Assembly: GCA_046483985.1 (NCBI GenBank)
Contig: JAWOCD010000022.1
Coordinates: forward strand, 16 to 64,015
Length of the DNA stretch: 64,000 nt
From: Promethearchaeia archaeon
Lineage (GTDB): Archaea; Asgardarchaeota; Lokiarchaeia; Sigyniarchaeales; SOKP01
Reading direction: 5' to 3'
The notes beneath the pieces are model-generated. The model made no database searches, was not told where the DNA came from, and saw nothing but the letters and a program-made list of their open reading frames with translations. The translations under genes and the position numbers were made by a program. Below are positions 3,723 to 24,801 of this stretch, in pieces. Every line of letters begins with the position of its first letter. Position 1 is the stretch's first letter.

Positions 3723-4730
3723 TTAATCTGGACAACTAGGCAATGGCGATACATCGTTTTTCTCTTTTTTTTCCTCTTTTTCCTCTCCCTTTGTCATACC
3801 TGACCACTGCGCATTTTTTACTCCTGTATTCTGAGCAATTCGGCGAAAATCCTCCATTTTCTCTTCTGTAAATATGTCCAAATTGCGTAAGGGCCAAATC
3901 TTATCCAGCCGTTCATATTTTGAAACGCAGATATTATTAAACGCCAATAAATCCCAACGCTCTGGGATATTGTATAACTTATTTACGATAAACTCTCCAA
4001 TCTCTCTTATATTTCTTTCTGTGGCGGTATATTTAGGGATAATCGGAGTCCGAATCCACAACCTTTTCCCATTTTCTTTAACGTACTTCGCCAACCATAT
4101 GGCGTTCTCTAAAATCCTCTTGTTAGATACCCCCGTAAATTTTTTATGCAGATCGTTATCCATCACCTTGATATCCAGTAAAATTAAGTCAACGTAAGGT
4201 AACAAATCTAAATAGGTTTCTTTGGTGGCAATACCACAAGTATCCAATGCCGTCGAGATTTCACTTTCTTTACAGCGTTTTAGAAATCTCAACACAAAAT
4301 GCTTTTGTTGAGTGGGCTCTCCGCCAGAAACGGTGATCCCGCCGTCAGATTTAGTGTAATATATTTTGTCTTTCTCCACTTCCTTAATTAGATCGGCCAA
4401 GCTCCACCATTCGCCAATTAGGTTCAATGCCGTACTGGGACATTCTTTTACACAATCTCCACAAACGCTACAAAGATCACGATCTATATGAAGCCCTTCT
4501 TCATCAAGTAAGAGCGCTTGTTGTTCGCAAGTCTCTATACACCTCTCACATCTTATACATTTATTCTTAAACCATTGAAGTTGTTGATCTTTCGTAATAC
4601 TCTCTGGATTATGGCACCATTCACACCGTAGGGGACATCCTTTAAGGAAAACGGTGGTACGAATTCCAGGACCATCCTCAGTGGAGAGTTTTTGTATTTC
4701 GAACACTAAACCGTCTTCTCTTTTGCTCAT
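3723..4730 (-). CDS. Glycyl-radical enzyme activating enzyme (radical SAM, with an extra 2x[4Fe-4S] ferredoxin insert)
   Basis: It has the N-terminal GPGIRTTVFLKGCPLRCEWCHNPES motif (CxxxCxxC of GRE activases). This is followed by CIRCERCIETC and CSVCGDCVKECP ferredoxin motifs and the GGITVSGGEP SAM-binding motif. Confidence 0.85.
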   Translation of the reverse strand: MSKREDGLVFEIQKLSTEDGPGIRTTVFLKGCPLRCEWCHNPESITKDQQLQWFKNKCIRCERCIETCEQQALLLDEEGLHIDRDLCSVCGDCVKECPSTALNLIGEWWSLADLIKEVEKDKIYYTKSDGGITVSGGEPTQQKHFVLRFLKRCKESEISTALDTCGIATKETYLDLLPYVDLILLDIKVMDNDLHKKFTGVSNKRILENAIWLAKYVKENGKRLWIRTPIIPKYTATERNIREIGEFIVNKLYNIPERWDLLAFNNICVSKYERLDKIWPLRNLDIFTEEKMEDFRRIAQNTGVKNAQWSGMTKGEEKEEKKEKNDVSPLPSCPD

Positions 4731-4834: not shown

Positions 4835-8140
<3,306 letters not shown>

Positions 8141-8154
8141 AATAATAAAAAATT

Positions 8155-8261
8155 ATTTAACGATCTGCGAAAGAAGTCCCCATCCCTTTAGGGTGGGGAT
8201 GAATTTCGTATTTATACAAACATTTTTAAATCCCCGTCCTTTAGGGCGGGGAGACTTCAAT
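8155..8261 (+). mobile_element. Gene-less miniature derivative (MITE/PATE-like) of the IS200/IS605 element at 63421, with left-end and right-end hairpins only
   Basis: Nt 8155-8232 match 63421-63498 with only minor differences (atttaacgatctgcgaaagaagtCCCCATCCCtttaGGGTGGGGatgaatttcgta...). The left hairpin is at 8178-8198. The right hairpin CCCCGTCCtttaGGGCGGGG is at 8232-8251. The end ...gagacttcaat is shared with 21851-21888. Confidence 0.8.
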
Positions 8262-8933
8262 TTCCGTTTTCTTTCTTAAAAAATAAAAACCAATTTCGAA
8301 AAACCAAAATATTATTGCAAAAAAGACCATCCACTCAATGAATCTTGTGGGTGCCGCCCGAAGATCTGTACTTTTTAATAGAACCATTAAATCAATTCCT
8401 TCAGTCATATATGGGACATAGCTGATTAAAAACGCAATAAATACCCCAGTAACTCCAAATCCAATGATTGCTTGAGAATTAGCAATCTCATCACAGAAGA
8501 TCATAGAAAGGCTAAAAAACAGAATCATAAACAGTCCAGCAAAAAAGAAGGTGGTCGATCCGGTGATATGTAATTGGGAATTATCCCTCATATTCCAAAT
8601 TGCGTTAATTTCTAATCCAATAATTGACAATATTCCGAAGAGAAAAGCACTCCAAATCATTATTTGGTGTCTTTCAATGTTATTCGATAAGAACTGAAAT
8701 AAAAATATGATGAAGATGGTCGCGAAAATGGAAGTAATCGTGAGCCCAACCATGAATACATATTGGGCCCCATTCGGACCTGCCCCTAAATGACTTATCC
8801 AATGAGAAAAAAGACTGAATGGTTCAGCAAGCATATATAATATTGACCCGATAAGAACCGTTAATCCCCCGCACATACCCGTTAAAAGTGCAAAATAAGC
8901 AGGTTTGATTTTTTCAAATAAAGATTTTAACAT
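8241..8933 (-). CDS. Polytopic membrane protein (about 6 TM), function unknown
   Basis: Six hydrophobic segments are present. The last 7 codons and the stop (EIEVSPP*) are encoded inside the miniature element at 8155-8261. Confidence 0.6.
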   Translation of the reverse strand: MLKSLFEKIKPAYFALLTGMCGGLTVLIGSILYMLAEPFSLFSHWISHLGAGPNGAQYVFMVGLTITSIFATIFIIFLFQFLSNNIERHQIMIWSAFLFGILSIIGLEINAIWNMRDNSQLHITGSTTFFFAGLFMILFFSLSMIFCDEIANSQAIIGFGVTGVFIAFLISYVPYMTEGIDLMVLLKSTDLRAAPTRFIEWMVFFAIIFWFFEIGFYFLRKKTEIEVSPP

Positions 8934-9295: not shown

Positions 9296-10585
9296 TTACA
9301 TTAGCGTTTGAGTAAACATCTTTATTTTGTTCTTTAAGACTTTCAAACTGGTCATACGCTTATCTCCTACATCAAGATCCACTACCAGCATGGGGATTCC
9401 TAACTCATCCTTAAGGGCTTCCCGTAAAATCTGCGTAACACTTCCAAATTGCTTGCAACCGATATGAGCGGTAAAAACAAAGCAATCCGCCTTATAATCT
9501 CTCGCCAAATTGATGGAGTCTTCTATAAAGGAATAGTAGAAATCAGTAGATTGTTTCATCATAGGAAATTCCATCCCCTTTTTTGCCATTCCGTAAAACA
9601 TCTTTTCCATTCCATTAGTAGTATCAATGGGTTCGGTAAAATTATAATTGAAGATATCAAACAACACGCTCATGCCGAGCTCTCTATCCAACCACTCACA
9701 TAGGGAAAGATCAAAAAAGATTAACATGTAGGGCCAGATTGAGCGAACCCTCTCCTCTCCTCCATGGTGAATCCCCTTTTTATAATTATTCTTGGCTACT
9801 TCGAGCATTTCATTATAATATTTTTCTTTTTCTTTAGTGCCCGCCATAAAAACGGAGACTGCCGCTGACATTGCATTAAAAATATTTTCTACAGGACACG
9901 GAACGGCTTTTTTTAATTCGAATATTTCAAGTTCGGTCTTGGTAATATTATCATCTAACTCTATTGCCTGCTCCATTTTATCCCAGTTGGGCTTTTGTCC
10001 GATAATTTCTCCAAGATCTTCTAAACTTTTCCGTATCTCTTCTCCATAATAATGATATCCCTCTTCCGAATGTCGAAAGGGCAAATCAGGCAGTACCAAG
10101 GGGGTATCCTCTTTATGTTTAAAAAAGGGATAAGAAGCGTATGTATTATCACAAGGGGCTGTGGGGGTGATAATTGCGTCGAAATCGAATAAATCATCGA
10201 GAGTCATCCCCATCACCCCTTTTTGTGAGGAACACGTATGAAATGGATGGCCCCAGCTTTCAATAAGGTCATAATATGCTTCTACACCTTCGGGCAATAA
10301 TGCAGAAAGAATATAAGAAACACCCTCGATACAAACAGGTACGATGTCAAAACATTTTAAATATTCCGCTTGAAATGCAAAATGATGTCCTACAATCGGC
10401 AGACCATCTCTTGCCTTTTCCACAAACTCTTCCAGTTTTTTTCCTAAATATTTAAGACCGATCCTTAAAGAGGGTATGGTTTGCTTTAGTAAAATAGTAT
10501 CCACTAACTGATGCGTATTTTGGAGAGCTTCCAGTAACATTTTAAAGGGAATTACTCGATTATCTAATTTAGCTGTTTTTTGCAT
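9296..10585 (-). CDS. 2-hydroxyacyl-CoA dehydratase / benzoyl-CoA reductase B/C-family subunit (HgdB-like)
   Basis: The size (429 aa) and the GHHFAFQAEYLKCFDIVPV pattern are typical of HGD-D family subunits. It lies directly downstream of a paralogous subunit. Confidence 0.7.
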   Translation of the reverse strand: MQKTAKLDNRVIPFKMLLEALQNTHQLVDTILLKQTIPSLRIGLKYLGKKLEEFVEKARDGLPIVGHHFAFQAEYLKCFDIVPVCIEGVSYILSALLPEGVEAYYDLIESWGHPFHTCSSQKGVMGMTLDDLFDFDAIITPTAPCDNTYASYPFFKHKEDTPLVLPDLPFRHSEEGYHYYGEEIRKSLEDLGEIIGQKPNWDKMEQAIELDDNITKTELEIFELKKAVPCPVENIFNAMSAAVSVFMAGTKEKEKYYNEMLEVAKNNYKKGIHHGGEERVRSIWPYMLIFFDLSLCEWLDRELGMSVLFDIFNYNFTEPIDTTNGMEKMFYGMAKKGMEFPMMKQSTDFYYSFIEDSINLARDYKADCFVFTAHIGCKQFGSVTQILREALKDELGIPMLVVDLDVGDKRMTSLKVLKNKIKMFTQTLM

Positions 10586-10611
10586 TTTTTAATCTCCTCA
10601 TTTATTATAAT

Positions 10612-11775
10612 CTATTTTATCATTTCTAAAAATGCTTCTATCCGTGTTCTTAATCTTGTATAATCTGATTGGGTTGCTTCTCTATCTATGTTAAAGACGG
10701 GGATTCCAAGACTCTTTAAATCATGCTCACACATCATGTTTTCACATCCATGAAGATCGCAGTTGTTTATCCGCTGCAGGATTACGCCTTCCACATTGCC
10801 TTCCTTGATTTCCTTGATTATATAATCGAATCTTCTGGAATGGTCGTCCATAAAGCGCGGACAAGATAATCGATAATAAGTTCTTTCTACGATGCTCTTA
10901 AGGGGATCACTTGTGGTTTTTACATCATCGATAATATTCCGGGTTCCAAAACATAACATGTCGGATACAATACTTGCTCCGGCTTTCTCAACTAAGGTAA
11001 TAAAATCGACGTTATCGATTACACTCCCGACCAGCATAATTCGTTTTTTGTTATTCTCAAGTGCAAGCCTTTCTTTTAATTTTTTTAGAATCCTTTTCAG
11101 TTCTCTATTTGCTATCTCCTTGGGCACGGAGGAATTTGCCATTGTTATTTTTAAAAATTCTTTTCCTGTCAGTTTCGGTTGTTTTCTTTTTCGATATCCG
11201 TGAATTTCGCGTAAAAGCTCTCTATTTTTGTTATAAATTTCTATTGAATTTGTTAACTTTTTTGCAGTTATTTCTGGTATATTATATTCGTCTAACAATT
11301 CATTTTTAAAATTTCGAACCTCTCGCTTATACCATTCGAGTCCTTCCTCTGTTAAAACATGGGGAACCGCGGTATAAAAGCAAGGGGGTTTAGCTGTATA
11401 GGTATCTCGCTCAAATACAGTAAGATCAAAAATTTCATACATTCTTCGACTATGATCGCACGAATTTGAAACAAAAAGACCATCAAGAAAGTTATATCCA
11501 CCTCTTAAGGCCATATCAAGGGATAATCTGACATATCCACATGTGAATCGAACCATATAGATATCTGCTAAATTATCGCTTATATGACCAGTTGTGCGGA
11601 TCCGATATGGTAAAATTCCCGCCGCATGGATAAGTTCTTCTGGAATATAAGTACAATAGTAACCTAATACCTTTTTGCCTTCTTGCTTCCATTGCTGTAC
11701 ATAGGAATTTTCTATTGTCTCAGAGAGTTTTAGGAAAGGATCATTCTCTAAATTCAAAATTTTCTTTTGCTCCAT
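10612..11775 (-). CDS. 2-hydroxyacyl-CoA dehydratase / benzoyl-CoA reductase B/C-family subunit (HgdA-like)
   Basis: KVLGYYCTYIPEELIHAAGILPYRI is the characteristic N-terminal block of this family. Conserved Cys residues are present, and it is paired with 9296-10585. Confidence 0.75.
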   Translation of the reverse strand: MEQKKILNLENDPFLKLSETIENSYVQQWKQEGKKVLGYYCTYIPEELIHAAGILPYRIRTTGHISDNLADIYMVRFTCGYVRLSLDMALRGGYNFLDGLFVSNSCDHSRRMYEIFDLTVFERDTYTAKPPCFYTAVPHVLTEEGLEWYKREVRNFKNELLDEYNIPEITAKKLTNSIEIYNKNRELLREIHGYRKRKQPKLTGKEFLKITMANSSVPKEIANRELKRILKKLKERLALENNKKRIMLVGSVIDNVDFITLVEKAGASIVSDMLCFGTRNIIDDVKTTSDPLKSIVERTYYRLSCPRFMDDHSRRFDYIIKEIKEGNVEGVILQRINNCDLHGCENMMCEHDLKSLGIPVFNIDREATQSDYTRLRTRIEAFLEMIK

Positions 11776-12212
11776 TATTTATTTGGTTTTTCTTTATATA
11801 TTTTATTTTTGCCAATCATCATCAGCCTACAGAGAGTCAGAGCGCTTAAAAAACTCCCTTTAATTTTAATTTTTCCCGTTAAAATTTTTGGGACAATTTT
11901 CAGAAGCCCAAAAATATTACTCTTCGAACGAATTATCTTGCTTACTATATCGGTGGCTTTATATTTATCCTCCACGTTGATGATAATAACGGCGGCTGGA
12001 TTTTCAGCTTTTTCCACGCGTACCTCGAAATTCTCGATCTCCCGAGTAAGCACAAACTTTAGGGAACCCGTAAGCGCGGGAAACTGCATCTCAATTTGTT
12101 CTCCCTCTTGTTCTTCCTTTACATATTTCTTAAATGATTTTTCTAGGCCAAATAAATCAATTAACATATTTGCCATTTTGGCAAAGTTCGCCAGCCGAGT
12201 TTCCCTTACCAA
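11775..12212 (-). CDS. SCP2 (sterol-carrier-protein-2)-like lipid/acyl-binding domain protein, tentative
   Basis: The C-terminal LTGKIKIKGSFLSALTLCRLM resembles the SCP2 signature (K-x-x-G-x...L). The first base of its stop codon is the last base of the downstream dehydratase start codon (nt 11775), which suggests translational coupling. Confidence 0.45.
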   Translation of the reverse strand: MVRETRLANFAKMANMLIDLFGLEKSFKKYVKEEQEGEQIEMQFPALTGSLKFVLTREIENFEVRVEKAENPAAVIIINVEDKYKATDIVSKIIRSKSNIFGLLKIVPKILTGKIKIKGSFLSALTLCRLMMIGKNKIYKEKPNK

Positions 12213-12432
12213 ACGTTCAGCCCGTACATCTCGATTTTCTTGAATTGATGAAGTTATACCTCTAACACCTTTTTAGAATTCCAATCTCAAAATCAATATA
12301 TTACATTTCAACCTTACTCATATATTTAATTTTACCTTTGGTTCTTGATAATAAGATTATAATAAAAAGAATAAAAAAATAGCTGATGTTGGGCTTGTCC
12401 CGATATTTCCAGATTTTTTCTGACAGTATATC

Positions 12433-13665
12433 TTAAAATATCAGCGAAATAAGGAACCATATTACCCATATAAATCCTATCAATATTACAATCGCTCCCA
12501 CTCCAAGCCACGAGGTCAACACATTTTTAACAATGTTAACCTTGAAATCTACAGCTTCATATGGACATAGTTCTGCGCAGCAATAACAAGTGATGCATTT
12601 ATCTTTATCCCATGAGGGAACATATTTACTGGGGTCATTGATTTCTGGCTTAGAAATGGCATCCACTGGACAATTTTCCCAACAAGTCCCGCATAATCTA
12701 CATTTTTCCAAATCAAATTTTACCGTAGACTTAAAAATCACTTCACTGGCATAATCAGCCAAGAATCTGGGTAACGGAAAACTGATGGGGCGACCAGGAG
12801 GACTTGTGAATTTCTTTTCCATTGATTTTATAGACTCTCCGAGAATCTCGAAAGATCGTAACTCTGTGGTTCCTAAATTTCTTATTTCTCCCTTCTTTAG
12901 GTATTTAATCTCTTTAGGATCAAAACCAATTAATTTACAGACCAAGGTGTCAAGGGCAACGGGATCAAACCCCGCAATGATGGTATCCATTTTCACAATA
13001 TCACCGGAAGAGGGCCCATTCCCTTCCATTCCATAATATCCGTCAATGACGGTCAGTTGGGGTCTGGAAACCGAATAGATATCGGTCAATGCCGCGCAGA
13101 AATCCTCAAGTTTCGGGAACTTAGCGTGAGTAGCTGCTTTATTTCCAAGGATTAAGGTCCCGAACATGTTCTTGATGCAACATGTGACCGTACATTGCCC
13201 GTGTGTTTTAATTTTCGGGAGATTGATGATTATATCCGCTTCCTCTAAAAGGGTGGATGAGGAGATCTGATTAAGCACGAGTGGATTCTCTACCTTGTAT
13301 AATTTTCGCGGTGTGGCTTCAAATGGAGTCCATTTTACATCTTCACGTTCACACACTTTTTTTAATCCGCTTTTTTCAAACGATTCTTCCGTTTTTCCGC
13401 GTTTTTGAGTCCCGCTTGAGTCTGCTACAATAATCTCTTCTGGGTTAAATTGTTTTACCCATTGGATTACGGCAGACAATACAGAAGGGTGTGTGGTTGT
13501 TCCCTCTTTGGGTGCCTTGGGCATGAGAAGATTGGGTTTTAGGAGAACTTTTCTTGGATTATTGTGAAACAACTTTTCTGCATGAATGAGTTCCAAGGCT
13601 TCAAAAACTGCCTCTTTTACGTTCTCATTTCGTATTTTGGTGAGTGATATTTTTTTATTGCTCAT
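12433..13665 (-). CDS. DUF362-domain protein with a C-terminal 2x[4Fe-4S] ferredoxin domain and a terminal TM anchor
   Basis: VLLKPNLLMPKAPKEGTTTHPSVLSAVI is typical of DUF362. CRLCGTCWENCP and CITCYCCAELCP are ferredoxin motifs. The last ~30 aa are hydrophobic (WLGVGAIVILIGFIWVIWFLISLIF). Confidence 0.65.
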   Translation of the reverse strand: MSNKKISLTKIRNENVKEAVFEALELIHAEKLFHNNPRKVLLKPNLLMPKAPKEGTTTHPSVLSAVIQWVKQFNPEEIIVADSSGTQKRGKTEESFEKSGLKKVCEREDVKWTPFEATPRKLYKVENPLVLNQISSSTLLEEADIIINLPKIKTHGQCTVTCCIKNMFGTLILGNKAATHAKFPKLEDFCAALTDIYSVSRPQLTVIDGYYGMEGNGPSSGDIVKMDTIIAGFDPVALDTLVCKLIGFDPKEIKYLKKGEIRNLGTTELRSFEILGESIKSMEKKFTSPPGRPISFPLPRFLADYASEVIFKSTVKFDLEKCRLCGTCWENCPVDAISKPEINDPSKYVPSWDKDKCITCYCCAELCPYEAVDFKVNIVKNVLTSWLGVGAIVILIGFIWVIWFLISLIF

Positions 13666-13740
13666 AGATCTTTTTAACCTTTGTAGACTTTTTTATTTTT
13701 GCCTATAGATCATTAATGAATTGTTTGATATTTCGATTTC

Positions 13741-14919
13741 TTATATCTCTTTTTCCACGAATGTTCTAAGTTTGTCTATTGCAATTTTTATCTCATTTAG
13801 TTCGGTTGCATAGGAGAGACGGATAAAATCGTCTCCATGAGGACCGAACGAAACCCCAGGGCAAGTTGCCACATGAGCCTTTTCAAGTAATTGGGTTGAA
13901 AAATTCATGCTATCCTTGCCCGTTTTTTTTATATTTACAAAAATATAGAAAGCTCCAGGGGGAGTCAAGCAGCTTATTCCTTCTATCTTGTTTACTTCTT
14001 CCACGATATAATCCCTTCTCTTTTTATAGGTTTGAATCATATTCTTCTTATCGTCTTCGCAATTTAAAGCATACATCCCCGCCACTTGAGAAATGGAAGG
14101 GGCGCAAATAGAGAAATTTTGCTGGATTGGAATCATTGCCGCATTAAATTTCGGTGGCGAGATAATATATCCCAAACGCCATCCCGTCATGGCATAAATT
14201 TTGCTGAATCCGTCCAAAATAATTAATCTGTCCTTTACTTTGTCATATAGTTCTTTATCGCTTAACGATGGTGCGATGGAACCGGTATATGTTAATTCCG
14301 AATAGATCTCATCCGAAATGACCCAGAATTGGTGATCTTGCACCAAGTCAGCAACTCCTTCTAAAGTTTCCTCGGGTATTATTTGTCCCGTGGGATTAGA
14401 TGGGCTGTTTAAAATAAGTGCCTTGGTATTAGAGGTAATTTTATCTTTTAACCGTTCCATGTCCAAATTAAACTCATCCTTTTCATAAATCGGGAGCATG
14501 GTTACCTTTCCATTAAAAAAATTGACGAAATTCACGTAACAAGGATAGCCGGGATCCGTAATTATTATTTCGTCCGGAGAATCTATCAAAACAGACATGA
14601 TATTAAAAAAGGCTGGAGATGTCCCTGAAGTGATCATCATTTCCGTTTCTGGATCAAATTGGACTTCTCGCTGATCGTATTTATTCTCTGCAATAGCTTC
14701 TCGTAATTCTAAGATTCCTAATGAATGCGTATAGTGCGTTTTCCCTCTGGAGATCTCATCCATGCAACCATTTATAATGCGTTGCGGCGTATCAAAATCG
14801 GGCTCCCCAATCTCTAGATGTTTTACATCAATCCCTTTTCTTTCCATCTGTTTTGCTTTTTCTAATACTTCCATTACAATAAACGGTTTTATCCGCTCTA
14901 ATCTCCTTGAAAATTCCAT
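13741..14919 (-). CDS. Class I/II PLP-dependent aminotransferase (aspartate/aromatic type)
   Basis: NSPSNPTG and the PLP-lysine block FSKIYAMTGWRLGY are present. The length is 392 aa. Confidence 0.85.
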   Translation of the reverse strand: MEFSRRLERIKPFIVMEVLEKAKQMERKGIDVKHLEIGEPDFDTPQRIINGCMDEISRGKTHYTHSLGILELREAIAENKYDQREVQFDPETEMMITSGTSPAFFNIMSVLIDSPDEIIITDPGYPCYVNFVNFFNGKVTMLPIYEKDEFNLDMERLKDKITSNTKALILNSPSNPTGQIIPEETLEGVADLVQDHQFWVISDEIYSELTYTGSIAPSLSDKELYDKVKDRLIILDGFSKIYAMTGWRLGYIISPPKFNAAMIPIQQNFSICAPSISQVAGMYALNCEDDKKNMIQTYKKRRDYIVEEVNKIEGISCLTPPGAFYIFVNIKKTGKDSMNFSTQLLEKAHVATCPGVSFGPHGDDFIRLSYATELNEIKIAIDKLRTFVEKEI

Positions 14920-15056
14920 TTTCTTATAACTCTCTTCTTTTTAGTTTTCGTTCCATATCTGATTTAAATCAATTATCCATTATAATATAAATATCCTTTA
15001 AAATATTAAAAATAAGACGATGTTATAACTTTAAAAAGAGAAATATAAAGAAGAAT

Positions 15057-17555
15057 TTAAATATTATGTGACTCCCGCGCAATTATCTCATCTTGCAATT
15101 CCTTCCCTATACTATTGAAATAGGCATTATAACCTGTAACTCGTACAAGAAGGTTTGGATAGTCCTTAGGATGCTTTTGGGCATCTTTAAGCATATCCAC
15201 ATCAAGCATATTAATTTGTAATGAGGTACCTCCGTTTTCAATATATCCTCGAAGGTATGCCTTAAATTTTTCTCGATGTTCCGGGTCGCGGATAATTGAT
15301 GGATTAAAGGTGATTGTGTGACTGGCTCCGTTGGGAAGATAATTGATGTATTCTCCATCCTCATTTTTACCGCCTAAAGCCCTTCCCACAGAGTTAGTGA
15401 CCGCAGTTGGACCCTTTTTGTCCGCTCCGGTATTAGGACATATGGCGTTTGACATAAAAGTTCCTTCATTTCTTCCATCTGGAGTTGCCGCCGTGAATGA
15501 TGCATCAGCTCCTGCCCAATAATTCCAAGAAAGCATGCCGGGTCGATATTGGAACCCCGTCGGAGTTTTATACTTCCAAGTTTCGTCCGCCCACGTTTTC
15601 ATTACTTTTCTGGCTAACTCATCGGGTTCCTTATTATCATTTCCGTATTTTGGTGCTTTATTCTTTAGGAAGGTTTGCATGATTATATTTTCTTTTCCTT
15701 CAAAATCATCTCTTAAAGCTTGTTTGACCTCCTTAATGGTATATCTTTCTTCATCATACACGAAATGTTTAATTGCAAGTAATGAATCCACCGTTGTGGC
15801 AAAACCTACTCCTTCGACGGTGACAAAGGAAAGTTCTGCCCCTCCATTTCTCACGTCTTTTCCTTGTTCAATGCATCCCCGAACGAGGGTTGATAGATAT
15901 GGGGTTGGTAAAAAGGCTCCGCGTAATTCTTCTGTCTTATTATTTACCTCCACTAGGTATTTAATAATGAACCTAACTTGCTCTTGCCATGCATTCCATA
16001 AATCCTCCCAACTCTCAAAATCTTCTGGTCTTCCCGTTTCAGGACCAATTTGTTCTCCATCTTTTGTGGCTTCATTATTGCCTGGCATATTCTTCCCGTT
16101 CCATAAGGTTAATTCTATACTTTTGGCAAGGTTCGGATTGCAATTAACTGTTCCGGATCTGTCGTTTCCTTGCATTGTATTTTCTAAGCACCCCACACAG
16201 GCGTAATCCCATGCATCCTCTTCTGGAATTCCCTCTCTTACCATACCAGCAATACTTCGCTCGTCAAAATTCAAGAGAAAGGGAGATCCTTGAGATCGGG
16301 AGATCATATCGATAATAATGTCTAATAGTTTATCTGGCGAATTTCTATTGAGTCGAATATTCGGTTTTGGCTCCAAAATTGGTGACCATTCATCAATTAC
16401 TTCTAAGATCGTGTAAGTTAATTCATTTGTTAGGTCTTCTCCATTTGGTCCACAGCCCGATAAGGTCATCAGTTGACCGAACGCGCTGGTGATCCCTTGT
16501 TTCCCTAACTTAATTTGAGCATCGTAGGCGGTATTACAATGAAACCAAAAGCTCCCCAAGATATCTTTGGCAAAATCTTTGGTGATGTTTCTTTCTTCAA
16601 TTACGTCCCTTTTATAAAGTTCCCATAAATATTGATCTGTTCTGCCAAATGAGGTTCCTGGGCCAGGATAGGATTCCTCGGCCATAATTAACATATGCGT
16701 TAACCATAGGGCTTGAACTCCTTGCCAAAATGTTTTCGCCGGTTCCCACGGTACTTTTTCTAAATTGATTGCCATTTGCTCTAGTTCTTCTTTTCTTTCT
16801 GGAGATTCCGTTTCTGAGATTAAGCGTCTGCATTCATCCGCATACTTTTTTGCCAATTTCCGTGGAATTTCCGTGGCTTTAATCATTGCTCTTAATTCTT
16901 CTCCCTTGGGTCCGTTTTTTTCTTTTTTTGATAGTTGTTCGTAGGACTTTTTGGCTTTTATGTGTAAATATTTAAATCCTTTCTTGATAATCGTATCATG
17001 ATCGGGAATAATGTGGCCTGCCGTTGCTCCCGTATTGCCGAATCCGGAACGATGAAATTTAAAAAGTGCATGTCTACATTCCAAATTTTTCTCCCAATAT
17101 TCCTCTGCCTCCGTTTTGGTGAGACATTTACTCAACTGGGTATTGAATCGTCCTCCCGCAATGAGATCATTTTCTGAAATGATTTCTTGGGGGATATAAT
17201 TTAATATGCCCTCCTCAAAGAAAGTTATCCGCCTTTCTGGCAACGATAGTTCCCAAAAATTATCCGGCAGCTCAACTTTTTGAGCCATCGAACGTATAGA
17301 GGCTACAAATGGTCCATATTCGTCCTCTCCGATATAGTAATATACCTCTGGAGCTACATAATAATCCCCTTCGTGCCAGATGACATCCCAATCAGTTCCT
17401 GTAGTTAAGGGGGTAAACTCATTTGCCCACTCTCTATCTGCTCCCTTAAAATAGTATTCCCGGAGCCATTGTTGTCTGGGGGAGAGATCATGCGATTCGG
17501 CAATTTGAAACTGCCGTTCGCGGGATAATTTAGATTTATTTTTACTCTTACTCAT
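15057..17555 (-). CDS. Glycyl radical enzyme, PFL2/dehydratase-like clade, divergent
   Basis: The C-terminal glycine-radical loop LLVRVTGYNAYF has Gly808 (nt 15117-15143). The thiyl loop DYACVGCLE has Cys456 and Glu458 (nt 16182-16199). The length is 832 aa. Confidence 0.9.
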   Translation of the reverse strand: MSKSKNKSKLSRERQFQIAESHDLSPRQQWLREYYFKGADREWANEFTPLTTGTDWDVIWHEGDYYVAPEVYYYIGEDEYGPFVASIRSMAQKVELPDNFWELSLPERRITFFEEGILNYIPQEIISENDLIAGGRFNTQLSKCLTKTEAEEYWEKNLECRHALFKFHRSGFGNTGATAGHIIPDHDTIIKKGFKYLHIKAKKSYEQLSKKEKNGPKGEELRAMIKATEIPRKLAKKYADECRRLISETESPERKEELEQMAINLEKVPWEPAKTFWQGVQALWLTHMLIMAEESYPGPGTSFGRTDQYLWELYKRDVIEERNITKDFAKDILGSFWFHCNTAYDAQIKLGKQGITSAFGQLMTLSGCGPNGEDLTNELTYTILEVIDEWSPILEPKPNIRLNRNSPDKLLDIIIDMISRSQGSPFLLNFDERSIAGMVREGIPEEDAWDYACVGCLENTMQGNDRSGTVNCNPNLAKSIELTLWNGKNMPGNNEATKDGEQIGPETGRPEDFESWEDLWNAWQEQVRFIIKYLVEVNNKTEELRGAFLPTPYLSTLVRGCIEQGKDVRNGGAELSFVTVEGVGFATTVDSLLAIKHFVYDEERYTIKEVKQALRDDFEGKENIIMQTFLKNKAPKYGNDNKEPDELARKVMKTWADETWKYKTPTGFQYRPGMLSWNYWAGADASFTAATPDGRNEGTFMSNAICPNTGADKKGPTAVTNSVGRALGGKNEDGEYINYLPNGASHTITFNPSIIRDPEHREKFKAYLRGYIENGGTSLQINMLDVDMLKDAQKHPKDYPNLLVRVTGYNAYFNSIGKELQDEIIARESHNI

Positions 17556-17907: not shown

Positions 17908-18999
17908 ATGAAAAATGTATTAGGGGTCGATCCGGGTACGAAATCTTGGGACTTTTTTGGGTTATCTGATAAAGATGTTGTTGTCGATACATCAATTCCC
18001 TCCAAAGAGTTAATGGAAAAGCCGCAGAAAGCAATTATGATTATTGAATCGATGGAAGATATAGATTTAATGGTGGCACCAAGCGGATTTGGGCTGCCGC
18101 TTAAAAAAGTCCAAGGTCTTGATAAAGATGATATATTTTTCACGCTGTTAAAATTTAAGAAAAAAGCAAAGGATCAATTACTCGGGCTGGGAGATGTCTT
18201 ACGTTTAATTAAGAAAGCGGATATTCCAGGTATAATGGTTCCTGGTGTAAAGCATCTATCCACGGTCCCTACCTATAGGAAGATAAATAAAGTAGATATG
18301 GGCACTGCCGATAAACTTTGTACCAGTGTGGTGGGAATTAAACATCAAATGGAACGATTTCATATTCTCCCGGAAAAAACGAATTTTATTATGGTTGAAA
18401 TAGGACACGGATTTACCGCAGTATTAGCCGTTGAAAATGGTCAAATTATCGATGGAATCGGCGGATCTAATATAATGGGATTCAGAGCATGTGGCAGTTT
18501 AGATGGCGAATTAGCATATTTAATTAAAAATATTAGGAAGAAAAATATTTACCGTGGGGGAGTGTCGTATATCTCTGGTTATCCGGATTTGAGTATTAAG
18601 GAAATTACATTCCTTGCTGAAAAGGATGAACATGTGAGAAATGCCTTAAAAGCTTATGTAGATGATGTTACAAAAGCAGTCTATGCGATATCATCTTCTT
18701 ATCTCGAAACCCATGAGAATATGGAGATTTTATTGGCTGGGAGGGGCGCGAAGATCGATTATTTACGTAATATGCTAGTAAACTCGATAGAATCGATCGC
18801 ACCGGTAAAGTTAATGGGAAATTATAGTCAAATCGCGAAGCGAGCAGCTCAAGGAGCTGCCTTTATCGCAAATGGCCTTTTAGACGGCGAATATGAGCCA
18901 ATAATCGATAATCTAAAGCTCAAAGAAGCTTCGGGGTCGATCCTTGACGATATTTATATCCCCCTCGATAATAAAGAACTCAAACCATATTTGCCCTAA
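17908..18999 (+). CDS. ASKHA-fold (acetate/sugar-kinase-like) protein resembling the archaeal DUF1464 family
   Basis: The N-terminal VLGVDPGTKSWDFFGL has a phosphate-1-like DxGT motif. The size is about 360 aa. The family assignment is from memory. Confidence 0.5.
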   Translation: MKNVLGVDPGTKSWDFFGLSDKDVVVDTSIPSKELMEKPQKAIMIIESMEDIDLMVAPSGFGLPLKKVQGLDKDDIFFTLLKFKKKAKDQLLGLGDVLRLIKKADIPGIMVPGVKHLSTVPTYRKINKVDMGTADKLCTSVVGIKHQMERFHILPEKTNFIMVEIGHGFTAVLAVENGQIIDGIGGSNIMGFRACGSLDGELAYLIKNIRKKNIYRGGVSYISGYPDLSIKEITFLAEKDEHVRNALKAYVDDVTKAVYAISSSYLETHENMEILLAGRGAKIDYLRNMLVNSIESIAPVKLMGNYSQIAKRAAQGAAFIANGLLDGEYEPIIDNLKLKEASGSILDDIYIPLDNKELKPYLP

Positions 19000-19055
19000 T
19001 TCATACTGTATTATCTAAAGAAGAAGATTATTATTTATCTACTGAGGAGAAAATT

Positions 19056-20636
19056 ATGAACATAGTTATCATTACCGGTGAGCAAAGCTATTCCATTCTT
19101 GAGGAGATAGTTAAAAATCTCCAGGAGCACCAATTCTCCATTGAAGTGGCTCCTGTTTCCATCTCTGCGTTTATAACAAAACAAATGGTTCGTTCTCTAC
19201 TTTCTTCTTTGCAAATCTCTTCGGTTGATTTAGTCCTACTTCCGGGTTTTATTCAATGGGATACTGTTTCTTTAGAAGGACAATTCAACGTTAAAATCAG
19301 AAAAGGCCCAGAATTTGCTTCAGATCTCCCGGTCATTATTGAACAGCTTGAAGATATCGAATTATCAACGACTATTCCTGCAAATAAGTTACTGCAAGTC
19401 TCTGGTGAAAAAGAATATAAAAACTTGGTGCAAAGAAAGCTCAAAACTGCAAAAGAACATATCTGCCATCACACTTTTTATGTGAAAAAAAGCCGCTCGG
19501 ATTTAATGATTGGTAAATATTTACCGCCCCCCATTATTGCTGAGATAGTTAATTGTACAGAAAAAACAGATGCGAAAATTATTAGGAAAGTTGCCCATTA
19601 TTCTAAGACGGGAGCGGATATTATTGATATTGGATGCGTATCAAATAAACCTAACCCGCAACGAGTTAGGGAGATTATAAGATTAATTCGAGATAAATTT
19701 AACATTTTGATTAGTATCGATTCAATGGATTCTAATGAAATTTCTGCTGCAGTCCATGAAGAGATTGATTTGATTTTAAGCCTTGATCTCAGTAATTATC
19801 GGACCTTCTTAGATATTCCCAAAGATATTCCAATTGTATTACTCCCCACGAAAATTAAGGAAGGGTTTTTCCCCCAAGACGCTGAGACACGAGTAAATAA
19901 TCTACTTGAATTAACGGAGATTATGCAGCAGCACGGCTTTAAAAAATTAATTGCAGATCCCTTATTAGAGACGCCCATAGCTCCCGGTATGTGCAATTCA
20001 CTAAAAGCATACTTTTTGTACCAAGAAAAGGTCAGTCAAAAGAAAAATTTACCTTTGGAGCTGCCGCTCTTTTTCGGAATCTCAAATGTGGTGGAACTTA
20101 TGGATGTGGATTCCATAGGGATAAACGGTTTACTAGCGAGTATTGCGACCGAATTAGAGATAGGAATAGTTTTTACCGTCGAGCATAGCGCAAAACTCAT
20201 GTACGGGGTGGCTGAGTTAAAACAGGCACTTATGCTTAATTATTTGGCTAAGGGGAAAAAAACGCCGCCAATCAATCAAGGGATCTCCGCATTTAAAGCG
20301 AAAGGAAAGACACGCGAAAAAATCCCCAACGAAGTTCGAAATAACCTCGAGGAGAACGTTATCCAAGCCGAAGAACAGAAAGAATATAAGCCCGATAAGA
20401 ATGGCTATTTTCGAATATATATTGAACATTATTCCGGGAAGATTTTCGTGTTATTTTATGATAACGCTGATAATTTTCTTCATTCTTTTCAAGGTAACAC
20501 CGCTGAAGATCTCAGTAAAAAGATCATAGAAATGAATTTAACTCAAAATATACAACATCTGAATTATCTTGGACGAGAATTGGCAAAAGCTGAATATTGT
20601 CTGAAGTCTGGGAAACCTTATTTACAAGACCAGTAA
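19056..20636 (+). CDS. Dihydropteroate-synthase-like pterin-binding protein (MJ0107-like architecture)
   Basis: The central GADIIDIGC is a pterin-binding TIM-barrel motif. The ~525-aa three-part architecture with N- and C-terminal extra domains resembles the methanogen DHPS-like proteins. Confidence 0.65.
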   Translation: MNIVIITGEQSYSILEEIVKNLQEHQFSIEVAPVSISAFITKQMVRSLLSSLQISSVDLVLLPGFIQWDTVSLEGQFNVKIRKGPEFASDLPVIIEQLEDIELSTTIPANKLLQVSGEKEYKNLVQRKLKTAKEHICHHTFYVKKSRSDLMIGKYLPPPIIAEIVNCTEKTDAKIIRKVAHYSKTGADIIDIGCVSNKPNPQRVREIIRLIRDKFNILISIDSMDSNEISAAVHEEIDLILSLDLSNYRTFLDIPKDIPIVLLPTKIKEGFFPQDAETRVNNLLELTEIMQQHGFKKLIADPLLETPIAPGMCNSLKAYFLYQEKVSQKKNLPLELPLFFGISNVVELMDVDSIGINGLLASIATELEIGIVFTVEHSAKLMYGVAELKQALMLNYLAKGKKTPPINQGISAFKAKGKTREKIPNEVRNNLEENVIQAEEQKEYKPDKNGYFRIYIEHYSGKIFVLFYDNADNFLHSFQGNTAEDLSKKIIEMNLTQNIQHLNYLGRELAKAEYCLKSGKPYLQDQ

Positions 20637-21773: not shown

Positions 21774-21888
21774 ATTTAACGATCTGCGAAAGAAGTCCCC
21801 ATCCCTTTACAGCCCTAAGATATGCCCACCAGCTAACGCTTAGTGGACTCGTAGGAATCCCCGTCCTTTAGGGCGGGGAGACTTCAAT
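21774..21888 (+). mobile_element. Second miniature IS200/IS605 derivative (rearranged left hairpin, longer right-end segment)
   Basis: The first 36 nt are identical to the first 36 nt of both the 8155 and 63421 copies (atttaacgatctgcgaaagaagtccccatcccttta). The last 32 nt (aatccccgtcctttagggcggggagacttcaat) are identical to 8230-8261. The 3' arm of the left hairpin is replaced by unrelated sequence. Confidence 0.8.
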
Positions 21889-23017
21889 AATGCTGGATTG
21901 TATTATATACAGTGTCCCTCTGAATGGGTTTTTTTCCTGCCGCCTTGATGATTTTAATGATCTCTTCGGGCAAAATAAACTCTCCATAGTCTGCTCCCGC
22001 GCTTTTTGAGATATTTTCTTCCATCAATGTTCCGGAAAAATCGTTTACGCCATAATTCAAAGAGACTTGAGCAAATTTTGGCCCCAATTTAACCCACGAA
22101 CATTGAATATTGTCAATATAATCTTTTAAAAATATTCTAGCCACCGCAAACAATTTTAAATCTGCCATACCATAACAGGGTTTCAGCGGGTATTTTTTTA
22201 TCCGCGCGAGTTTCGGGTTTTTTTTCACAAACGGTAAGGGAACAAATTCTGTAATACCCTTTGTTTCTTTCTGCACCTCACGTAATACACTTAAATGTTC
22301 TATCCGGTCTTCCAAACTCTCAATATGTCCATACATCATTGTAGAAGTGGTTGGAATGTCTAATTGGTGGGCAATAGTGATGATCTCTTTCCAATGTTCC
22401 ACATTAATTTTATTCGGACACATAATTCTTCTTATTTCATCAACTAAAATCTCTGCCGCGGTCCCGGGCATTGAACCCAGACCATTCTTCTTTAGCTCCT
22501 TTAAAGTATTTTTAATACTCAATCCGGTTATTTCTGCCATATGGAAAATTTCTTGAGGGGAAAAAGCATGAATGTGTATCTCAGAATCCACCTCTTTAAC
22601 GGTTTTGAGGATATCGATATAAAATTGAAAATCTACTTCAGCATTTATGCCTCCTTGGATGCAAACCTCCGTACATCCTTTACTTTTAGCTTCTTTCACT
22701 TTATTTTTGATTTCTTCGAGAGACAAAAGAAAAGCTTCCTCGTGATTGGGGGGGACACTGAAAGAACAAAAAAGACATCCTTGCTGGCAAATATTGGTAA
22801 AGTTTATATTACGATTTATAACAAAAGAAACCATGTTCTTGGTTTTTTCAACACAAATTCTATTTGCGACTCGTTGTAGGCCAATAAATTCTTTCCCCGT
22901 AACTTTAAGTAATTCAACAGCTTCTTCCTTCTTTAATTGGTGACCATCTAAGACCCTGCTAAGAATATTGTTGATATCCGCTTTAATTTCGTGTTTAAAA
23001 AAGTCGAAACTTCCCAT
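21884..23017 (-). CDS. cofH: FO (7,8-didemethyl-8-hydroxy-5-deazariboflavin) synthase subunit CofH (radical SAM)
   Basis: VSFVINRNINFTNICQQGCLFCSF is a CofH/MqnC-type CxxxCxxC block. It lies immediately downstream of a CofG-type gene. Confidence 0.72.
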   Translation of the reverse strand: MGSFDFFKHEIKADINNILSRVLDGHQLKKEEAVELLKVTGKEFIGLQRVANRICVEKTKNMVSFVINRNINFTNICQQGCLFCSFSVPPNHEEAFLLSLEEIKNKVKEAKSKGCTEVCIQGGINAEVDFQFYIDILKTVKEVDSEIHIHAFSPQEIFHMAEITGLSIKNTLKELKKNGLGSMPGTAAEILVDEIRRIMCPNKINVEHWKEIITIAHQLDIPTTSTMMYGHIESLEDRIEHLSVLREVQKETKGITEFVPLPFVKKNPKLARIKKYPLKPCYGMADLKLFAVARIFLKDYIDNIQCSWVKLGPKFAQVSLNYGVNDFSGTLMEENISKSAGADYGEFILPEEIIKIIKAAGKKPIQRDTVYNTIQHY

Positions 23018-23027
23018 ATACTTTCAA

Positions 23028-24128
23028 TTATCTTAAATTATTTATCACATTTAAAATCATATCGGAACAAAAGCCTTCTTCTTGAATATATTTTTCATAA
23101 ATGGGAAGCCTTTCCTTCAGAGTAAATCCGTTTTGAGAACAAATCCTTTTTAAAGTATTAATTTTGGGCCATGGTTTTTTGGGGTTAATTTGATCTGCTG
23201 TAAACGGGGAAATACCTCCGAAATCATCGATTCCCATCTTTAAAAACTTCTCGGCATGGTTTTCGATAAGATTGGGGGGGACTTGTACTGGAATTTCATT
23301 ACCAAAAATTAGTTTCGCAATTCCTACGGTTTTTAATATTTCTTGGATGCTTATCGGTTCGGGGGGGTGAAATGCAATTCCTGGTTTCTCGATGAAGTTC
23401 TGAATTATCACTTCCTGGATATGTCCAAATTCTTCATGAATTTCCTTTATTATAAGAAGATCTTTTATCCGATCTGAGAGGTTCTCGCCAATTCCAAGTA
23501 AAAGCCCTGTAGTGAAGGGGATTTTGAGTTTTCCCGCATTTCGTAAGTGTTTAATTCGTTTTTCTGGGGTTTTTTTCGGAGATTTTTCATGAACTTCTCC
23601 TTTTTCAAATAACTTCATGCTGGTACTTTCAAGCATTAACCCCATACTTGCATTAAACTTTTTCAGATCTTCTAACTCTCGGTAAGAAAGATATCCAATA
23701 TTCGTATGGGGGAGAATGTTAAAATCCAACAAATAGGAGGAAACATCTTTTACAAATTCAATAAAGTCAGCACACCCTCTTTTTTCCAACTCGGACTGGA
23801 CTTCCTTGTAATGATTTGGCCTTTCTCCGGAAATTAATAAACCCTCTTTACAATTGTGTTCCAATCCCTTTTGAATGAGCGAGGTCATTTTTTCGTTTTC
23901 GATTAAGACCACATTTCCTTCTCCCTTTAGTTTGGGGACTTTATAGTTGTAAAAGCAATATCCGCATTGATTTTGACAATAGTTGGATAATGAAAGGGTA
24001 AAATTTCGGGAGTAGGTAATGACATTTCTTTTTTCCTTCGGCAATCGGCCTTTGATTTCGTGAACTCGTTCCCGAATGGTTCTCAAGGATAATGCTTTTA
24101 GCTCTTTTATCCTTTGTTCCTTATTCAT
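23028..24128 (-). CDS. cofG: FO synthase subunit CofG (radical SAM)
   Basis: ITYSRNFTLSLSNYCQNQCGYCFY is a CofG-type cluster motif. It is adjacent to CofH. Confidence 0.72.
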   Translation of the reverse strand: MNKEQRIKELKALSLRTIRERVHEIKGRLPKEKRNVITYSRNFTLSLSNYCQNQCGYCFYNYKVPKLKGEGNVVLIENEKMTSLIQKGLEHNCKEGLLISGERPNHYKEVQSELEKRGCADFIEFVKDVSSYLLDFNILPHTNIGYLSYRELEDLKKFNASMGLMLESTSMKLFEKGEVHEKSPKKTPEKRIKHLRNAGKLKIPFTTGLLLGIGENLSDRIKDLLIIKEIHEEFGHIQEVIIQNFIEKPGIAFHPPEPISIQEILKTVGIAKLIFGNEIPVQVPPNLIENHAEKFLKMGIDDFGGISPFTADQINPKKPWPKINTLKRICSQNGFTLKERLPIYEKYIQEEGFCSDMILNVINNLR

Positions 24129-24801
24129 TTGACTTATCCCTCCGTGTATAATATAACGTTACATACCCATCCCGATGAGCGACATCTTTTACTTTGTATC
24201 GAGGGCAATCTCTCATCTCCCCAAAACCGAACCCTTCCACTAAACTTGTAGCATCTTCTCCCCCAACCATCCAAGGCGCGATAGTCACACGTATCTCATC
24301 TATCAAGTCATTTTTTACAAAACTCCAATTTAGTGTGCCTCCTCCCTCCAAAAGGATTGATTTAATGCCCTTTTTATACAATTCTGGCATAAGACTAGGG
24401 AGTGCAACCCTCTTACCCTTTCCTGCTTTAATAATTGTGATTTCTTTTTCTTGGAAATTACGTTCCTTATGGGGTGTAATATTTTCTGTGGTGCAGATAA
24501 TAGTTGGATATAAATCTTGTTGATATGTGACCACCTTTGCTTCCAAGGGAATAGAAAGATTACTATCTAATATAATTCTGTAATAACCAGAATGCTCGTA
24601 GTATTTAATATGCAGTTTCGGGTCGTCTTTCAAGATTGTTCCTTTGCCTACCATGATGGCATCTACATTCGTTCTTAATTTATGAACCTCCCGCCAATCT
24701 TGTTCATCCGATAACTCGGGATCGCCCGTTCTAGAAGCGATTTTCCCATCTATCGTCATTGCGGCACTTAATATTATATATGGATTTTTATCCTCTTTCA
24801 A
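24121..24801 (-). CDS. 2,5-diamino-6-ribosylamino-4(3H)-pyrimidinone 5'-phosphate reductase (RibD C-terminal domain type, archaeal ArfC/Rib7-like)
   Basis: MTIDGKIASRTGDPELSDEQDWREVHKLRTNVDAIMVGKGTILKDDPKL and LLEGGGTLNWSF are RibD_C/DHFR-like motifs. It overlaps cofG by 8 nt. Confidence 0.8.
   Translation of the reverse strand: MKEDKNPYIILSAAMTIDGKIASRTGDPELSDEQDWREVHKLRTNVDAIMVGKGTILKDDPKLHIKYYEHSGYYRIILDSNLSIPLEAKVVTYQQDLYPTIICTTENITPHKERNFQEKEITIIKAGKGKRVALPSLMPELYKKGIKSILLEGGGTLNWSFVKNDLIDEIRVTIAPWMVGGEDATSLVEGFGFGEMRDCPRYKVKDVAHRDGYVTLYYTRRDKSNE

Follow-up and report, generated by a model that had tools for sequence, protein, structure and literature searches.

Do six neighbouring genes on one strand amount to one pathway? 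The question is raised by a 64,000-nucleotide stretch (hereafter the window) of contig JAWOCD010000022.1 (assembly GCA_046483985.1), which comes from a metagenome-assembled genome (MAG) of a Promethearchaeia (Asgard) archaeon and has a G+C content of ~36%. Here a glycyl radical enzyme (GRE), a pyridoxal 5'-phosphate (PLP) aminotransferase, a DUF362 protein with a ferredoxin domain, a small SCP2-fold protein and two subunits of the HGD-D family are encoded in succession (Table 1). A first-pass annotation, made from the letters alone, had proposed that they form one unit coupling two different radical enzyme systems. The open reading frames (ORFs) are as it described, all on the minus strand between 9296 and 17555, and Pfam agrees with the family assignments (PFL-like plus Gly_radical, Aminotran_1_2, DUF362 plus Fer4, and HGD-D twice). 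The coupling did not survive comparison with other loci. The block is probably a lineage-specific juxtaposition of three separately conserved modules: the GRE with its activase and a putative split-barrel partner (module 1), the aminotransferase with the DUF362-ferredoxin (module 2), and the SCP2 gene with the N- and O-type HGD-D subunits (module 3, or SCP2/N/O).

Two surveys carry this answer. A scan for the GRE in one genome per species (GTDB) gave 80 loci with flanks of up to 10 kb. Those with at least 2.5 kb downstream of the GRE were counted as informative (n = 64; 35 archaeal and 29 bacterial), and not one of the 64 has an HGD-D or an aminotransferase gene. In the reverse direction, a metagenome scan with the O-type subunit gave 80 loci which, with those collected earlier, make 86 (831 kb, 782 ORFs). 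The GRE family of the window is found in none of the 86, two BLAST matches presumably belonging to a different, 791-amino-acid HypD-like GRE, and DUF362 occurs in one, itself a close relative of the window. The layout of the window is seen only in close relatives (L084 to L087). In L084, whose GRE is 86% identical, the run of GRE, aminotransferase and DUF362 is followed by three unrelated genes before the SCP2 gene and the start of an HGD-D gene. In L086 and L087, the order is DUF362, SCP2, HGD-D, HGD-D, a 435-amino-acid gene, DUF998, GH2 (on the opposite strand), activase and the gene called ORF295 (2694-3581 in the window). The modules are separable even within the narrow clade that shares the layout.

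The spacing of the genes can be read in the same light. From the GRE to the O subunit, the intergenic gaps measure 137, 75, 220, -1 and 26 bp. The 137-bp and 220-bp gaps hold T-runs followed by A+T-rich, TATA-like boxes, and a single transcript is therefore not implied; the two long gaps would be compatible with separate transcripts, although such motifs are weak in a genome of 36% G+C.

What, then, is each module? Membership of the GRE in the glycyl radical superfamily is clear (PF02901, E 3e-125; PF01228, E 1.5e-22), and both loops singled out in the first-pass annotation are there, RVTGYNAYF at residues 805-813 and DYACVGCLE(N) at 450-459. The unusual GCLEN of the second loop is genuine, the same place reading GCVEP in glycerol dehydratase and GCVET in HypD. 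The N-terminus is as unfamiliar as had been suspected: Pfam and PDB alignments to characterised GREs begin only at residue ~173-182. These first ~175 residues are nonetheless conserved inside the enzyme's own family, bacterial members included. The enzyme falls outside every characterised subfamily and misses all NCBIfam equivalog cut-offs, scoring 394 bits against 1100 for HypD, 366 against 1000 for HpsG (sulfopropanediol dehydratase) and 329 against 1050 for CutC; the PFL2-3 subfamily model gives 429 bits against a cut-off of 678. Its best PDB relatives are glycerol dehydratase (1r8w, 317 bits) and HypD (6vxc, 305 bits). Among the 120 best homologs, none falls below 71% identity, and wherever a source is named, it is an Asgard (Promethearchaeota/Lokiarchaeota, Hod-, Hermod- or Heimdallarchaeota).

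The active site tells more about the likely chemistry. In a family alignment of 44 archaeal and 32 bacterial members, 220 positions are invariant (conserved in at least 97%). They include the motifs Y451-x2-VGCLENTM-x-GNDRSGTV-x2-N473, EE-x-YPG-x-G-x-SFGR-x-DQ (293-308), RPGMLSWNYW (671-680) and the Gly loop. The Cys-x-Glu arrangement of 1,2-eliminating GREs, which had been recognised at the outset, is present: C456 and E458 align with C433 and E435 of glycerol dehydratase and are invariant in all 76 members. So is H181, the counterpart of glycerol dehydratase H164, which completes the eliminase signature of G-C-x-E plus an N-terminal His. The contact residues of the characterised eliminases are replaced. 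Where glycerol dehydratase has Ser282, Tyr339, Asp447 and Tyr640, this enzyme has Gly300, Gly360, Val470 and Leu675, and where HypD has Asp278, Ser334 and Tyr450, it has Pro299, Gln353 and Asn473. The replacements and the sub-cut-off scores place it outside any characterised eliminase subfamily.

From these comparisons, we conclude that the GRE is a predicted eliminase-type enzyme with a substrate other than glycerol, propanediol, choline or hydroxyproline. Its predicted working residues are Gly808 for the radical, Cys456 for the thiyl, Glu458 as general base and His181. That the active-site loops are so strongly conserved in archaea and bacteria alike suggests a substrate shared by both. With glycerol dehydratase and HypD, the enzyme shares the fold from residue ~180 onward, the RVxGY and G-C-x-E motifs, the His and an activase with a ferredoxin insert. 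Unlike them, it has motifs of its own (VGCLENTMxGNDRSGTV and RPGMLSWNYW) and the divergent N-terminal ~175 residues, and its clade has a conserved, putatively tandem PNPOx-like partner that is not known to accompany the characterised eliminases.

This partner emerges from the loci in which the GRE occurs. Asgard archaea account for 47 of the 80 loci (64-78% identity), and Promethearchaeum syntrophicum MK-D1 has a GRE that is 67% identical (L039). The other 33 are bacterial, with 52-55% identity over the full length, and their hosts belong to Chloroflexia, Clostridia/Oscillospiraceae, Desulfobacterales, Myxococcota, Izemoplasmatales and Spirochaetaceae. Among the informative loci, an activase lies within 400 bp after the GRE in 18 of 35 archaeal and 28 of 29 bacterial cases, and a homolog of ORF295 is present directly after the activase in 23 of 35 and 29 of 29, respectively. 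This recurrent adjacency marks GRE-activase-ORF295 as the conserved unit. In the window, the activase and ORF295 sit 10.3 kb downstream of the GRE, with the stretch from the aminotransferase to GH2 in between. The activase itself scores 323.6 bits with TIGR02494 (cut-off 174.35), as expected of a GRE-activating enzyme.

The assignment of ORF295 comes mainly from its homologs. PNPOx_N matches 18 of 22 of these (best E 8.8e-8), and the protein of the window reaches 20.7 bits, below the cut-off of 28.1. In PDB profile searches, its N-terminal half weakly matches 3in6, which binds flavin mononucleotide (FMN), and HupZ, and its C-terminal half weakly matches 2htd and 2hq7; the structures matched by both halves are small FMN- or haem-binding split barrels. 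ORF295 is therefore read as a putative tandem split-barrel protein. In a limited collection of papers, no account of a GRE accompanied by a PNPOx-like protein was found, and to our knowledge none has been reported for the known GRE eliminases. The bacterial loci give one further lead, a GntR/FCD/FadR_C regulator that precedes the GRE in 20 of 31. Other neighbours are sporadic, with flavin adenine dinucleotide (FAD) oxidoreductases, an MFS_2 transporter and ATP-binding cassette components each in at most six of the 31, and no conserved substrate clue beyond the FadR-type regulator was found in these neighbourhoods.

In Asgard genomes, the junction between GRE and activase is a variable spot that repeatedly holds acyl-CoA beta-oxidation-type genes or other cargo. 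For example, it contains thiolase, 3-hydroxyacyl-CoA dehydrogenase and crotonase genes, with or without a molybdopterin oxidoreductase, in L013, L014 and L077, thiolase and an NMO-like gene in L010 and L012, and an amidohydrolase with SIR2 in L023. GH2 is a recurrent neighbour of SCP2/N/O elsewhere, which suggests that this part of the window's cargo, the genes from SCP2 through GH2, came in as one piece. A look for direct or inverted repeats flanking the inserted block found only short, imperfect matches at chance level, and an Rfam scan of the window and six bacterial GRE loci gave no RNA family, riboswitches included, at threshold. One of the loci deserves a comment of its own: L014 (DATKTW010000103.1) is labelled 'Candidatus Nanopelagicaceae bacterium', but its colinearity with L013 and L077 and its Asgard-type GRE (74% identity) make mis-binning of an Asgard contig probable.

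Module 1 would thus be a three-gene cassette, common to Asgards and diverse anaerobic bacteria, that has been split in the window by ~10 kb of inserted cargo. In its proposed working, the activase would make the glycyl radical on Gly808, and the thiyl radical on Cys456 would take a hydrogen atom from a small substrate whose leaving group neighbours a carbon bearing a hydroxyl. The 1,2-elimination would be helped by Glu458 and His181. The putative split-barrel flavoprotein might then process the carbonyl or imine product, a step proposed with low confidence.

The HGD-D pair is the second enzyme system. Both subunits belong to the HGD-D superfamily (BCR class I/HAD/DCCP) by PF06050. Among PDB structures, the 387-amino-acid subunit is closest to BzdN (8s02_B, 164 bits), ahead of HadC (126 bits), MbdN (103 bits) and DCCP (100-102 bits). 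The [8Fe-9S] cluster of BzdN is held by Cys36, Cys73, Cys100, Cys263, Cys293 and Cys327 (Fuchs et al. 2025, PMC11971306). They align with Cys41, Cys79, Cys106, Cys275, Cys305 and Cys339 of this subunit, all invariant in 120 of 120 Asgard homologs, so that it has the full six-Cys double-cubane signature. Its best NCBIfam model, 'double_cubane', gives 199 bits, below the cut-off of 350, and the HadB and HadC models give 29 and 152 bits against cut-offs of 750 and 700. The 429-amino-acid subunit is very divergent, its family profile finding MbdO at E 3e-6, HadB at 8.5e-5 and BzdO at 0.12. Three invariant residues, Cys118, Cys145 and Cys377, align with Cys in HadB, DCCP and MbdO, and by offset they match the BzdO ligands Cys95, Cys128 and Cys380 (PMC11971306). 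The position of BzdO His131 appears, tentatively and again by offset, to be Thr148. The 429-amino-acid protein is predicted to be the substrate-side [4Fe-4S] subunit.

With six double-cubane Cys in one subunit and three [4Fe-4S] Cys in the other, the pair resembles the catalytic core of class I benzoyl-CoA reductase. It had been labelled 2-hydroxyacyl-CoA-dehydratase-like, of which the superfamily stands and the dehydratase is too specific, the nearest relative being BzdN with its six double-cubane Cys. The likeness to BzdNO (8s02; PMC11971306) extends to two HGD-D-fold subunits, the six double-cubane Cys and three Cys for an open-site [4Fe-4S] cluster. Unlike BzdNO, the pair has no adjacent BzdPQ ATPase genes, a very divergent O subunit and an extra SCP2-fold partner, and its neighbours are GH2, DUF6125, CCG and GlcD-like or CooC-like genes instead of those of a benzoyl-CoA pathway. 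HadBC (3o3m; activator HadI) shares the superfamily and the two-subunit architecture and is the second-best solved relative. Its clusters are single [4Fe-4S] (for HadB, see PMC11971306), whereas the N subunit here has the six-Cys double-cubane set, and no activator is adjacent. DCCP (6eno/7yyl, with DCCP-R) shares the six-Cys signature, but it is a homodimer with its own ATPase reductase, unlike the N/O heterodimer with an SCP2 protein.

The SCP2 protein had been a guess from sequence, and its structure model bears it out. The AlphaFold model of the 145-amino-acid ORF (pLDDT 89.9) matches SCP2-fold structures in Foldseek with probability 1.00, the best being UbiJ-SCP2 (6h6o/6h6p; E 8e-6, TMt 0.67-0.75), followed by the C-terminal SCP2 domains of alkylsulfatases, rabbit SCP2 and AF1534. 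Pfam gave no significant family for the ORF of the window, and its SCP2 family was matched in one of six family members (E 0.024). A PDB profile search returned essentially nothing, so the fold is settled by the structure model alone. UbiJ binds lipids and, as an accessory protein, offers hydrophobic substrates to enzymes. The 145-amino-acid protein shares the SCP2 alpha/beta fold with the UbiJ domain (TMt up to 0.75) but differs from it in sequence (12-15% identity), in lacking a ubiquinone context and in belonging to a family found only in Asgard archaea. It has 330 homologs, each source-named one an Asgard 'hypothetical protein', and it lies directly upstream of the HGD-D pair in every locus inspected by hand. 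The start of the gene is odd. Its homologs share N-terminal residues (...RDVRAERL...) whose codons in the window precede the annotated TTG start (12212-12275, minus strand), and reading back in frame from that TTG, one reaches a stop (12275-12273) before any other ATG, GTG or TTG. Translation may begin at a non-canonical codon, or this genome may encode a shortened N-terminus.

SCP2/N/O is an Asgard-wide three-gene unit of its own, often in multiple copies. Among the 86 loci, many on short contigs, the N-type subunit is present in 61 and the SCP2 gene in 55, and the module is often tandemly duplicated (for example, in L088 and L089). Other neighbours are CCG-domain (23 loci), DUF6125 (22), GH2 (19) and aconitase-like genes (17). 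In one sub-variant, a single same-strand run encodes SCP2, N, O (and a second O), a GlcD-like FAD oxidase and a 421-amino-acid CCG protein. It continues with a CdhC-like, Cys-rich protein of 260 amino acids and a CooC/NifH-like P-loop ATPase with a GPGCFCP motif. This run is found in L101, L102, L110, L117 and L145 and, rearranged, in L114, L119, L147 and L166/L167; it could be an alternative maturation or electron-input system. A methylmalonyl-CoA-mutase-like set lies upstream in L102, L110 and L147, with the mutase identified by Pfam and the B12-binding and MeaB-like genes by eye. In L115, L132, L139 and L140, the gene for the 791-amino-acid HypD-like GRE (loop SGCVETGAFGKEAYILTGY) is on the strand opposite to the SCP2/HGD-D module and four genes upstream of it; these loci are colinear with one another and so probably come from one lineage. 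A search of a limited collection of papers found nothing relevant on 2-hydroxyacyl-CoA dehydratases in Lokiarchaeota.

As for its proposed mechanism, the N subunit would store low-potential electrons in its [8Fe-9S] double-cubane cluster and pass them to the open-site [4Fe-4S] cluster of the O subunit. There, the SCP2 protein would deliver a thioester or another hydrophobic substrate for reduction or dehydration.

Such a scheme needs a source of electrons, and the window was said to lack an activator. This is correct, in that no BcrAD_BadFG/HgdC match was found by Pfam in the ~30 window ORFs scanned. Precomputed Pfam matches within 10 kb in eight annotated module loci also include no BcrAD_BadFG, and a crude screen for the ASKHA phosphate-1 motif found it in none of the 782 ORFs of the 86 loci. 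The window holds neither the BzdPQ/BcrAD genes that lie alongside a class I benzoyl-CoA reductase nor the HgdC/HadI activator, CoA-transferase and 2-hydroxyacid dehydrogenase of a 2-hydroxyacyl-CoA dehydratase, the rest of the genome not having been searched for either set. We know of no characterised member of the BCR/HAD/DCCP superfamily that does without an ASKHA-type ATPase. BzdQ-type subunits have been reported in at least one Lokiarchaeota MAG (Farag et al., bioRxiv 10.1101/763623), which makes a trans-encoded activator the simplest assumption. The low-potential electron source is thus most likely a BcrAD/BzdPQ-type ATPase encoded in trans. A bolder and rather unlikely idea is that SCP2/N/O, as an enzyme family specific to Asgard archaea and expanded in them, charges its [8Fe-9S] cluster without an ASKHA-type ATPase, using electron partners that vary locally and a lipid-like substrate delivered by SCP2. 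These partners would be the membrane-anchored DUF362-ferredoxin in the window and CCG/GlcD-like and CooC/NifH-like proteins elsewhere. In a weaker variant, SCP2/N/O would be metabolically linked to the neighbouring GRE in the clade of the window only. If the idea were true, an N/O pair working without an ATP-driven activator would change our understanding of the low-potential cluster chemistry of the superfamily.

Between these two systems lie the genes of module 2. The aminotransferase falls below all NCBIfam equivalog cut-offs and adjoins the GRE only in the close relatives L084 and L085. The DUF362 protein has the architecture ascribed to it, with two CxxCxxCxxxC motifs and a C-terminal hydrophobic helix at 392-410, and a PDB sequence search found relatives for its ferredoxin part and none for the DUF362 domain. 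As part of the three-module reading, and with the same good but not full confidence, both genes are taken to be local cargo.

How firmly can the three modules be held apart? Several points weigh against doing so. At least three related MAGs (the window, L084 and L086/L087) preserve the co-directional layout, and this leaves room for a local functional link. Acyl-CoA genes occupy the junction between GRE and activase in several Asgards, and the separate HypD-like GRE stands four genes away from the HGD-D module in the four colinear loci named above, as some recurrent association between GREs and CoA esters might produce. Most of the compared loci come from MAGs or short contigs, and the mechanistic steps that go beyond conserved residues are, for both enzymes, inference from sequence. 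The shared layout, the acyl-CoA genes and the nearby HypD-like GRE would also suit a single operon for a new amino-acid or 2-hydroxy-acid fermentation, in which the aminotransferase would form a 2-oxo acid, the GRE and the HGD-D pair would act in sequence on it or its CoA ester, and the DUF362-ferredoxin would supply electrons in place of an ATP-dependent activator. The shared strand, the overlap and 26-bp gap within the SCP2/N/O part and the lack of an activator in the window fit as well. We consider this quite unlikely, since the combination is missing from all 64 GRE loci and all 86 HGD-D loci and the GRE has its own activase and PNPOx-like partner beyond the inserted block. Terminator-like T-runs stand in the two long gaps, and DUF362, found in a single module locus, is split from the SCP2 gene by the three unrelated genes of L084.

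Published reconstructions offer two other answers. Asgard PFL-family genes have been read as Ass/Bss and HGD-D genes as benzoyl-CoA reductase of the Bcr/Bzd type (PMC8163825; bioRxiv 10.1101/763623). On this view, the GRE here would be an alkyl-/benzylsuccinate synthase, and the HGD-D pair would supply the catalytic subunits of a class I (Bzd-type), ATP-dependent benzoyl-CoA reductase. The closeness of the N-type subunit to BzdN, with all six double-cubane Cys kept, agrees with the latter half. The GRE, however, is less similar to the succinate synthases in the PDB (8iof (BSS) 228, MasD 198 and TutD 164 bits) than to the two eliminases, whose His and Cys-x-Glu set it has. No small BssB/C-like subunit gene follows it and no small-subunit gene recurs among the clustered bacterial loci, its partners elsewhere being the activase and the putative flavoprotein. 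The O subunit barely registers with BzdO, whose His131 is apparently and tentatively Thr148 here, and no BzdPQ/BcrAD ATPase is in the window. The partners of the module are SCP2, GH2, DUF6125 and CCG proteins, and no Dch, Had or Oah was identified in its neighbourhoods, though no search was aimed at these families. Taken together, this makes the hydrocarbon and aromatic assignment very unlikely. The other answer is a 2-oxoacid formate-lyase, with the aminotransferase giving a 2-oxo acid that the GRE cleaves to acyl-CoA and formate. Imachi et al. (2020; PMC7015854) invoke such lyases in MK-D1, which has this GRE clade, and in the window an aminotransferase adjoins the GRE. The enzyme itself makes this hard to credit. 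Pyruvate formate-lyase (PFL) chemistry requires an adjacent Cys-Cys pair; an invariant Gly455 precedes Cys456, and the pair is therefore absent. The PFL equivalog models give 81 bits (TIGR01255, cut-off 994) and 291 bits (another model, cut-off 1109), and E. coli PFL in the PDB aligns over the C-terminal 210 residues only. We therefore retain three modules as the probable reading.

Table 1. Genes of the six-gene block, the inserted cargo and the flanking context, with positions in the window
Feature	Module	Position	Strand	Length and basis
GRE	1	15057-17555	-	832 aa; Pfam PFL-like + Gly_radical
Class I/II (aspartate/aromatic-type) PLP aminotransferase	2	13741-14919	-	392 aa; Aminotran_1_2 E 4e-64
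DUF362 + 2x[4Fe-4S] ferredoxin domain + C-terminal membrane anchor	2	12433-13665	-	410 aa; DUF362 + Fer4
SCP2-fold small protein	3	11775-12212	-	145 aa; AlphaFold model + Foldseek
BzdN-like (N-type) HGD-D subunit	3	10612-11775	-	387 aa; PF06050 E 7e-86
O/alpha-type HGD-D subunit	3	9296-10585	-	429 aa; PF06050 E 1.7e-45
DUF998-like polytopic membrane protein	inserted cargo	8241-8933	-	weak DUF998/Frag1 matches; colinear in L086/L087
GH2 beta-galactosidase-like glycosidase	inserted cargo	4841-8140	+	colinear in L086/L087; recurrent HGD-D-module neighbour
GRE-activating radical SAM enzyme with ferredoxin-like insert	1	3723-4730	-	TIGR02494
Putative tandem PNPOx-like split-barrel protein (ORF295)	1	2694-3581	-	PNPOx_N in homologs; third conserved cassette member
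DUF1464 + pterin-binding/DUF4346 gene pair	context	17908-20636	+	divergent from GRE; kept with GRE in Asgard loci only

On the other side of the GRE, the surroundings have a theme of their own. In ~18 Asgard loci, a DUF1464 gene runs divergently from the GRE, and it invariably has a pterin-binding/DUF4346 gene as its pair. Its product has an ASKHA-like N-terminus, G(I/V)DPG(S/T)xSW, and C138 and C195 are invariant in 17 of 17 Asgard homologs. The idea that DUF1464 is a hidden HgdC-like activator was considered and set aside: a PDB search by sequence gave no relative, the gene keeps synteny with the pterin-binding one and no DUF1464 lies near any HGD-D locus annotated with Pfam families, so it is kept only as a lead. 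The window continues at 21884-27194 with CofH/CofG-like radical SAM genes, RibD_C, an amidohydrolase and a FolE2/MptA GTP cyclohydrolase, and in the Hodarchaeota locus L002, the genes that come after the GRE trio encode DUF447, archaeal DHNA and a GHMP kinase. These neighbours embed the Asgard GRE cassette in a pterin/deazaflavin cofactor neighbourhood; no homologs of these genes were found in the bacterial GRE loci. Further along, three ORFs of 346, 437 and 384 amino acids (27201-28241, +; 28379-29692, +; 30600-31754, -) have no Pfam family at E <= 0.001.

Asgard archaea are the closest known prokaryotic relatives of eukaryotes, and scenarios of syntrophy and hydrocarbon degradation have been built for them on the published readings weighed above. 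The evidence gathered here indicates instead that a widespread Asgard GRE clade is of the predicted eliminase type, has a putative flavoprotein partner and is shared with rumen, gut and sediment bacteria. Likewise, the abundant Asgard HGD-D pairs make up a family of their own, associated with SCP2 and predicted to carry a double-cubane cluster. The GRE cassette and SCP2/N/O are two uncharacterised enzyme systems and well-defined targets for enzymology, and the three-gene cassettes are compact enough to express. The bacterial cassettes, which stand behind a FadR-type regulator, may offer a route to the substrate of the GRE.

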